From the UHGV virus genome UHGV-0300374: a DNA stretch of 64,000 nucleotides; one strand, written 5' to 3'. Numbering within the stretch: position 1 is the first letter of the stretch; each line of letters begins with the position of its first letter. The stretch is from a virus. The position numbers were made by a program, and so were the translations under genes. The notes beneath the pieces were generated by a model, which was not told where the DNA came from, made no database searches, and saw nothing but the letters and a program-made list of their open reading frames with translations. Shown piece after piece: positions 39,154 through 39,939 of this stretch.

Positions 39154-39939
39154 TTAGTTCTTTGCGTCTAAGAAGGTAACTTCTGGTGAAGAGAAGATTG
39201 CCTCGATATCCTCATCAGTTCTTGCATAGATATAAGCTTCTGCATCACTACCAAATGTTACAGCAATTCTGTGATTGCTCTTTGACAGGTGGGTAACTAG
39301 AGCGTTACTTAGAGACATCTTTTCAACCGGAGGGTTACTTTGATGTATCTTACCTTTTCTTCGTCTGAAGAGGGTAACTGCATTATCCGTGAACACTGCT
39401 ACACCTGCAAAGTATTCTGGTTCACAGTAGTTCTTCCAACCTGAGAGTAACTTGTGGTACATCTCTCCTTCATAGACATATAGATAAACATCTACACTCT
39501 TCATAACCTGATTGATGATAACTGTGACGGCTTGAGAGTCTAGTCCACCGATACCTGCACCAATCATAGGTAACCCAACTTTCTTCAACTGATTGACTTC
39601 ACAGTATCTGTTAAGTTGTTTCAAAGATGACTCTAAAGCACTGTATCGGGCATCTTTACCAGTCTTAAGCTGAGTGTAAAGGTTAGCTATACGGCCTTGT
39701 TCTAAACGTGCTACAGAGAAATTACCCAGTAAATTTTCACAGGGTTTGTGACCTATACCACCTGCATAGAGGTAAACTTCTGTATCGGTCTCATATGCTT
39801 TTGGGTAAAGTTTAGAAATCTTGTCAGCGATACCTGCACCCATTAAATTCATACAGTTGCAACCGTGACCAATAATATCAAACTTACCTTTATCAAATGC
39901 TGAGAAGATATCCCCATTGATGATTTTTACAATACCCAT
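39154..39939 (-). CDS. macro-domain protein (ADP-ribose binding/processing) with about 110-aa C-terminal extension
   Basis: N-terminal IINGDIF...DIIGHGCNCMNLMGAGIA and later GLPMIGAGIGGLD resemble macro-domain Gly-rich motifs. Confidence 0.5.
   Translation of the reverse strand: MGIVKIINGDIFSAFDKGKFDIIGHGCNCMNLMGAGIADKISKLYPKAYETDTEVYLYAGGIGHKPCENLLGNFSVARLEQGRIANLYTQLKTGKDARYSALESSLKQLNRYCEVNQLKKVGLPMIGAGIGGLDSQAVTVIINQVMKSVDVYLYVYEGEMYHKLLSGWKNYCEPEYFAGVAVFTDNAVTLFRRRKGKIHQSNPPVEKMSLSNALVTHLSKSNHRIAVTFGSDAEAYIYARTDEDIEAIFSSPEVTFLDAKN

Follow-up and report, generated by a model that had tools for sequence, protein, structure and literature searches.

The window analysed here is a stretch of 64,000 nucleotides from the virus genome UHGV-0300374. 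The phage is a Felixounavirus; between positions 38000 and 41000, the window shares 94-97% DNA identity with approximately 200 Felix O1-like myoviruses (Felixounavirus, Ounavirinae). The gene of interest (Table 1) is a complete open reading frame (ORF) on the minus strand, real and of exactly the 261 aa given for it in an earlier note made from the sequence alone. Its ortholog in the BASEL phage Bas63 (JohannRWettstein), gp95, is 96.6% identical, and the usual annotation of the protein in phage records is "phosphatase." In approximately 250 phage records, it forms one unbroken ORF. Over 18 distinct Felixounavirus alleles, Nei-Gojobori dN/dS is 0.07 in the first 156 residues and 0.18 in the remainder (157-261); both the macro domain and the C-terminal tail are thus under purifying selection, the tail evolving approximately 2.5 times faster. 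The gene is a genuine one of Felix O1-type phages, and its product is a macro-domain enzyme that processes ADP-ribose.

Table 1. Position of the macro gene, its parts, and associated features in the window.
Feature	Position	Strand	Remarks
Intrinsic-terminator-like hairpin	39083..39124	-	17 pairs, then T-run; 30 nt past macro stop
Macro + C-terminal domain CDS, complete, 261 aa	39154..39939	-	PHROG 335, E 1.6e-112 over residues 1-260
C-terminal orphan domain (tail), residues 158-261 + stop codon	39154..39468	-	
Macro domain, N-terminal, residues 1-157	39469..39939	-	Poa1p/TARG1/DarG class; phage Tk.4/AdfM/Adpp family
Loop 2, diphosphate-binding loop, residues 122-134	39538..39576	-	GLPMIGAGIGGLD
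NLYTQ motif, residues 86-90	39670..39684	-	
Loop 1, residues 24-38	39826..39870	-	GHGCNCMNLMGAGIA
66-aa Cys-rich (CxxC...CxxC) ORF	39940..40140	-	Stop abuts macro start (TAAATG)
Namat (nicotinamide ADP-ribose transferase, annotated NadV)	47422..49203	-	Second NARP1 enzyme; 97% identical to Bas63 gp80, 235 residues compared
Adps (ADPR pyrophosphokinase, annotated Prs)	49249..50145	-	First NARP1 enzyme; domains as in Bas63 NARP1

Just past the terminator-like hairpin that follows the macro gene are three 34-nt promoter-like repeats (38950-39095). The small minus-strand genes from 31500 to 39100 are separated by direct-repeat families of 48-120 nt (5-7 copies with 63-94% identity), which constitute leader cassettes. 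The macro gene had been placed at the head of this early-gene array, and its nearness to the leader cassettes had been offered as a clue to function. Neither proposal survives the presence of the terminator downstream of the macro stop codon: the gene ends one transcription unit and therefore does not head the array of small genes, and because the terminator separates the two, its position beside the array is functionally meaningless. On its other side, the macro gene is probably translationally coupled to the 66-aa Cys-rich ORF, which is conserved in Felixounavirus and Mooglevirus and for which database profile searches returned no family match. This Zn-ribbon ORF was also considered as a general partner of macro genes and rejected, comparable ORFs being found only in Felix/Moogle-type phages and at two other loci. 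At loci L058 and L100, small Cys-rich ORFs unrelated to the 66-aa ORF overlap the macro genes.

Two further minus-strand ORFs of the window deserve mention. One of 180 aa (34256-34798), for which there was no Pfam match, occupies the position of Bas63 gp107; the PhageMaP preprint describes gp107 as weakly similar to the NAD-binding domain of the RNA 2'-phosphotransferase Tpt1 and as conditionally important on E. coli S17-1. A possible role of the 180-aa product is that of an ADP-ribose "writer" alongside the "eraser" of the same phage. The other, of 231 aa (41968-42663), is called a polynucleotide kinase in related phages; it had no Pfam match at E 0.01, and its ortholog in a distant contig gave only faint HAD_PNKP matches.

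What had been noted earlier as a "NadV/Prs pair" of NAD/ADP-ribose metabolism is indeed such a pair, namely the Adps and Namat of NARP1 as known from Bas63, and the copies in the window have the same Pfam domains as those of Bas63 (PF14572, PF18127, PF04095). With Bas63 genes 79-80, NARP1 was demonstrated to rebuild NAD+ from free ADP-ribose and nicotinamide (10.1101/2024.02.11.579819). [quoted passage not shown] A macro-domain protein named Adpp was found no more than two genes from NARP1 in 15% of NARP1 phages/operons, location "within two genes of Adps-Namat" being the operational definition of Adpp used by its authors (10.64898/2026.01.28.702374). ADPR is produced from ADPR-1P by the purified Adpp of Vibrio phage Gary, the anti-aRES effect of which is abolished by the replacement H24A (10.64898/2026.01.28.702374). 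Felix-type phages were not found in Table S1 of that study.

The N-terminal domain of the 261-aa protein has the three-layer alpha/beta/alpha macro fold, and residues 25-141 match Pfam PF01661 with 31.4 bits (cut-off 22). Macro membership was judged by an N-terminal Asp for adenine, the Gly-rich loop 1, and the diphosphate loop 2. Little or no variation is seen across the family in D10 or in the HGCNC..MGAGIA and IGAGIGG loops, and from an alignment of 18 homologs the (nearly) invariant D10, M33-G34-A35-G36-x-A38, and G127-A128-G129-I130-x-G132 are predicted to be the ADP-ribose-binding elements. The Gly-rich motifs had thus been correctly recognized as the ADP-ribose-binding loops of a macro domain; a non-macro fold or the loss of ADP-ribose-contacting residues had been set beforehand as possible refutations, and instead a macro fold was found with the contacting residues in place. 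Inspection of the catalytic residues, as had been proposed, gave a divided result. The essential His of Adpp is kept, H25 (codon 39865-39867) aligning with Adpp H24, whereas the catalytic Lys of DarG (K80) and TARG1 (K84) is replaced in the alignment by an invariant Q90. In addition, TARG1 D125 aligns with G131, and thus the K84/D125 catalytic pair is not conserved. In loop 2, the protein has the form GIGGLD typical of the Ounavirinae, without the Trp of the Adpp-like, T-even, and DarG proteins. In the Kolesnikvirus ortholog of Erwinia phage vEam_PM_27 (locus L006, 1498-2280), Gln takes the place of the equivalent of Adpp H24 (IGQGCNC), and the function of the macro protein may have changed in this Erwinia-infecting branch.

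Comparison with the characterized phage proteins places the window protein in their family. Residues 3-157 align with the T4-type Tk.4 of phage AR1 (its residues 2-152) at 33% identity (E 8e-23), and Gary Adpp is 27% identical to the window protein (E 6e-14), while Adpp and Tk.4 share 34% identity with each other; given these mutual identities, the three form one family, with the window protein somewhat nearer in sequence to Tk.4 than to Adpp. The T4 gene tk.4 has been renamed adfM, transposon sequencing and a clean deletion having revealed that T4 needs it on hosts with DarTG2; de-ADP-ribosylation of DNA is the proposed mechanism of AdfM and was not assayed biochemically (10.1101/2025.11.20.689424).

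The association between this family and NARP1 was also recovered, independently of the aRES preprint, by our own neighbourhood analysis. The analysis covered 80 loci from IMG/VR retrieved with the macro family as seed and, separately, 80 diverse loci retrieved with Namat. Adps was adjacent to Namat in 74 of the 80 Namat-seeded loci, and a family macro gene was located within 10 kb in 15 of them, always on the same strand; in eight, it was no more than 300 nt from Adps or Namat and often between both. Adjacency in 8 of these 15 loci corresponds to P ~3e-5 under a rough model of approximately 10 equally likely gene slots, some of the loci being mutually related. On the NJ tree, which is star-like, the NARP1-linked macros are dispersed, and the association is therefore recurrent or ancient. 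One Pakpunavirus (L036) has Adps, a small ORF, Namat, another small ORF, and the macro gene in succession. Among macro-seeded loci from outside the Ounavirinae, L074 has a compact Adps-macro-Namat arrangement with gaps of 9-10 nt; in L108, Nmnat and Nampt are followed 0.8 kb downstream by the macro gene; and L068 carries an island with Nmnat, Nampt, macro, a Sir2-like gene, and Prs, where the Nmnat (L068, L108) and Sir2-like (L068) assignments are based on N-terminal sequence motifs only. The L068 island (7047-15570 of a 247-kb IMG/VR contig), in which the macro start overlaps the Nampt stop and a SLOG-like small ORF (N-terminal motif) is also found, looks like a NARP2-type set with an attached macro gene. 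At L077 (1130-2721), a 385-aa ORF resembling nicotinate phosphoribosyltransferase, by an N-terminal motif only, ends at the macro start and would be another NAD-salvage enzyme in an operon with the macro family.

In the window itself, the macro gene lies 7495 nt and approximately 15 genes downstream of Namat in the same orientation, with rIIA, rIIB, the PNK-like gene, spanin genes, and terminators between the two. The gene thus shares a genome with NARP1 and is located outside the two-gene distance by which Adpp was defined; the Namat...macro synteny is kept in a distant Ounavirinae-like contig. A coordinated NAD/ADP-ribose module had been proposed from proximity. As an argument drawn from the window, proximity is weak, but the idea of a module gains from the close linkage that recurs in other lineages of phages.

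The C-terminal extension had been described as uncharacterised, which is borne out: it matches no known family and is confined to the Ounavirinae. Its predicted structure begins with a linker helix, continues with six beta-strands, and closes with a short helix at the C-terminus; confidence is fair (pLDDT 84-92 within the model of the whole protein, 78 for the tail modelled by itself), and no sequence or fold relative was found outside its own family. Queried by itself in a word-indexed homolog search, the tail gave zero matches, its own family included, and Pfam searches with the tail and all 14 tail homologs gave single chance-level matches only; among PHROGs it matched only PHROG 335 itself, and among PDB sequences there was no accepted match. 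An HMMER profile search of 1.84 billion proteins recovered only the macro-fused family members, together with weak multi-repeat matches to PQQ/BamB-type propeller blades. A beta-propeller of this type (E 4e-7 to 8e-4; BamB E 0.009 in the PDB) was judged to be a short motif resemblance (P..DGv.V...G...W) and rejected. Residues ~170-205, the first three beta-strands, carry the motif P..F.GV.V......V.L....GK..W/H, like one PQQ/BamB-type blade. A reading as a 2H-phosphoesterase was likewise rejected because the HQS and HLS triplets are not conserved, and an internal start at M160 behind GAAGGAG was dismissed given a spacing of 2 nt and a Met (Ile in one allele) and purine run that are not conserved. 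The tail showed homology to neither the DarG C-terminal domain nor the aRad1 inhibitors.

Among 101 macro ORFs of the family, a tail of at least 90 aa occurs in a monophyletic Ounavirinae clade only. Between genera, the tails are 48-55% identical vs 76-79% for the macro domains, and the Erwinia Kolesnikvirus tail is of equal length with undetectable similarity (hhalign probability 0.1). Only P174, G179, and Y236 are (nearly) invariant, and the net charge varies from -6 to +2 among homologs, with no consistently basic or acidic character. These features give no indication of a catalytic site, nor of nucleic-acid binding or DNA mimicry. The pattern of a conserved enzymatic head with a variable tail suggests instead that the tail would serve as an accessory binding or targeting module that engages a partner rather than as a catalyst. 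By analogy with DarG-DarT, it could conceivably be an inhibitor of a new kind that makes direct contact with an NAD+-targeting effector of the host (aRES, DarT2, or other), such that one defence would be hit twice, with the enzyme blocked and its product cleaned up; we regard this more specific proposal as doubtful. Were it correct, the fast evolution of the tail and its divergence or replacement in the Erwinia phages would reflect host-specific co-evolution.

The protein may be envisaged as a two-domain counter-defence enzyme, the macro domain of which would bind an ADP-ribose derivative and hydrolyse it to free ADP-ribose. The likeliest physiological substrate would be the ADP-ribose-1''-phosphate made from NAD+ by the RES-domain NAD+ phosphorylases of aRES; removal of its phosphate would furnish the substrate for the Adps and Namat of the phage itself, and the phage would thus run a split NARP1-AP pathway. 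Dephosphorylation of ADPR-1P feeding NARP1 is ranked first among the functions considered, with a probability of approximately 0.5. In its favour, the phage has NARP1, hosts carry aRES, the catalytic His is kept, and the family is tied to NARP1. Against it are the location of the gene outside the NARP1 operon, past rIIA/rIIB, the spanin genes, and terminators, its closer similarity to Tk.4/AdfM, a loop 2 unlike those of the Adpp-like and T-even proteins, and the Gln of Kolesnikvirus homologs in place of H25. Experimental data on gp95 were not found in the main text of the Bas63 essentiality study. Both of the broader roles suggested earlier have a precedent within the family, action against ADP-ribosylating toxins in T4 Tk.4/AdfM, which counters DarT2 (10.1101/2025.11.20.689424), and NAD recycling in Adpp, which feeds NAD+ reconstitution (10.64898/2026.01.28.702374).

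DarT2-modified thymidine in DNA may likewise be relieved of its ADP-ribose by the active site of the macro domain, as proposed for AdfM, and it is possible, if less probable, that this is the principal function of the protein: as an anti-DarTG2 factor, it would clear DarT2-marked thymidines in single-stranded phage DNA and restore replication, and its link to NARP1 would reflect only the clustering of counter-defence genes. The slightly higher similarity to Tk.4 is consistent with such a role, as is the resemblance of GIGGLD in loop 2 to the GGLDW of DarG. DarG models were also the only PADLOC and NCBIfam matches (E 4e-13 and 1e-12), confined to the macro half; the PADLOC match spans profile positions 17-146 of 329, and that of NCBIfam (positions 4-151 of 338) reaches 47.9 bits, far under its cut-off of 250. 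However, DarG K80 is a Gln in the window protein, likewise in Tk.4, the mechanism of AdfM is itself inferred, and DNA repair leaves unexplained why the family is so strongly linked to NARP1 at the level of operons. No sequence position was found to discriminate Adpp-like from AdfM-like proteins, which are spread over a star-like NJ tree. The two roles are compatible, and one enzyme could plausibly perform both.

Other readings place the protein further from either precedent. The presence of TARG1/OARD1 among the nearest solved structures, the L068 island with its macro and Sir2-like genes (the latter recognized by an N-terminal motif only) beside Nampt, Nmnat, and Prs, and the reported similarity of Bas63 gp107 to the NAD-binding domain of Tpt1 would all suit an enzyme that removes ADP-ribose adducts from proteins or RNA ends in general, or that deacylates O-acyl-ADP-ribose, and that serves the ADP-ribosylation or NAD-consuming enzymes of the phage itself rather than counter-defence. 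We consider this unlikely: TARG1 K84 and D125 align with Q90 and G131, no ADP-ribosyltransferase is known from this phage, and both of the experimentally studied family members oppose host defences. Still less credence is given to a non-catalytic sponge for ADP-ribose-derived immune signals (Thoeris His-ADPR, gcADPR) with the tail as its oligomerising part, inasmuch as strict conservation of the catalytic His and of both loops is what an enzyme would show, the relatives are either enzymes or genetically required against other systems, and type II Thoeris is unaffected by NARP1.

Control of NAD+ is central to the conflict between bacteria and phages, and Bas63, the phage with which NARP1 was demonstrated, is near-identical to the window phage. 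The roles of the macro family are already known, from 2025-26 preprints only; what is new here is the orphan tail specific to the Ounavirinae and the location of the gene away from the NARP1 operon. If a distal macro protein of the gp95 type does supply Adpp activity, then Felix O1-type phages already possess a complete, split NARP1-AP, and counts limited to operon-adjacent genes would underestimate the frequency of this counter-defence. Felix O1-like phages are in wide use for typing, biocontrol, and therapy with Salmonella and E. coli, and knowledge of the defences that they overcome is thus of practical value. The orphan tail also offers a defined, selectable domain in which a new activity could be sought.

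Set beside known systems, the window protein differs from the yeast Poa1p and human TARG1/OARD1 in being a two-domain phage protein, whereas these are cellular and consist of a single domain; TARG1/OARD1 acts on several substrates. DarG combines a macro domain with a C-terminal DarT-binding domain and has K80 (in M. tuberculosis and T. aquaticus) where the window protein has Q90, and of the loops compared, it is the GGLDW of DarG that GIGGLD resembles most; a darT toxin gene was not among the neighbours of the macro gene, these being the Zn-ribbon ORF, small hypothetical genes, and the spanin genes. Tk.4/AdfM shares HGCNC, NLYTQ, and IGAGIG with the window protein, and also the Gln at the position of the DarG catalytic Lys, but it is a single domain of 155 aa with the loop-2 Trp, whereas the Felix-type protein has a 104-aa tail and no such Trp; T4, to our knowledge, has no NARP1. 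The extra C-terminal domain of 104 residues is likewise absent from Adpp and from the other family members examined outside the Ounavirinae. With Adpp, loop 2 reads GLAGGDW rather than GIGGLD, and the gene is located within the NARP1 operon, not 7.5 kb and approximately 15 genes away. Nevertheless, both proteins belong to the same Poa1p-like phage macro family, with His in the H-x-C-N-C loop (H24 in Adpp, H25 in the window protein), and the phages of both encode Adps and Namat.
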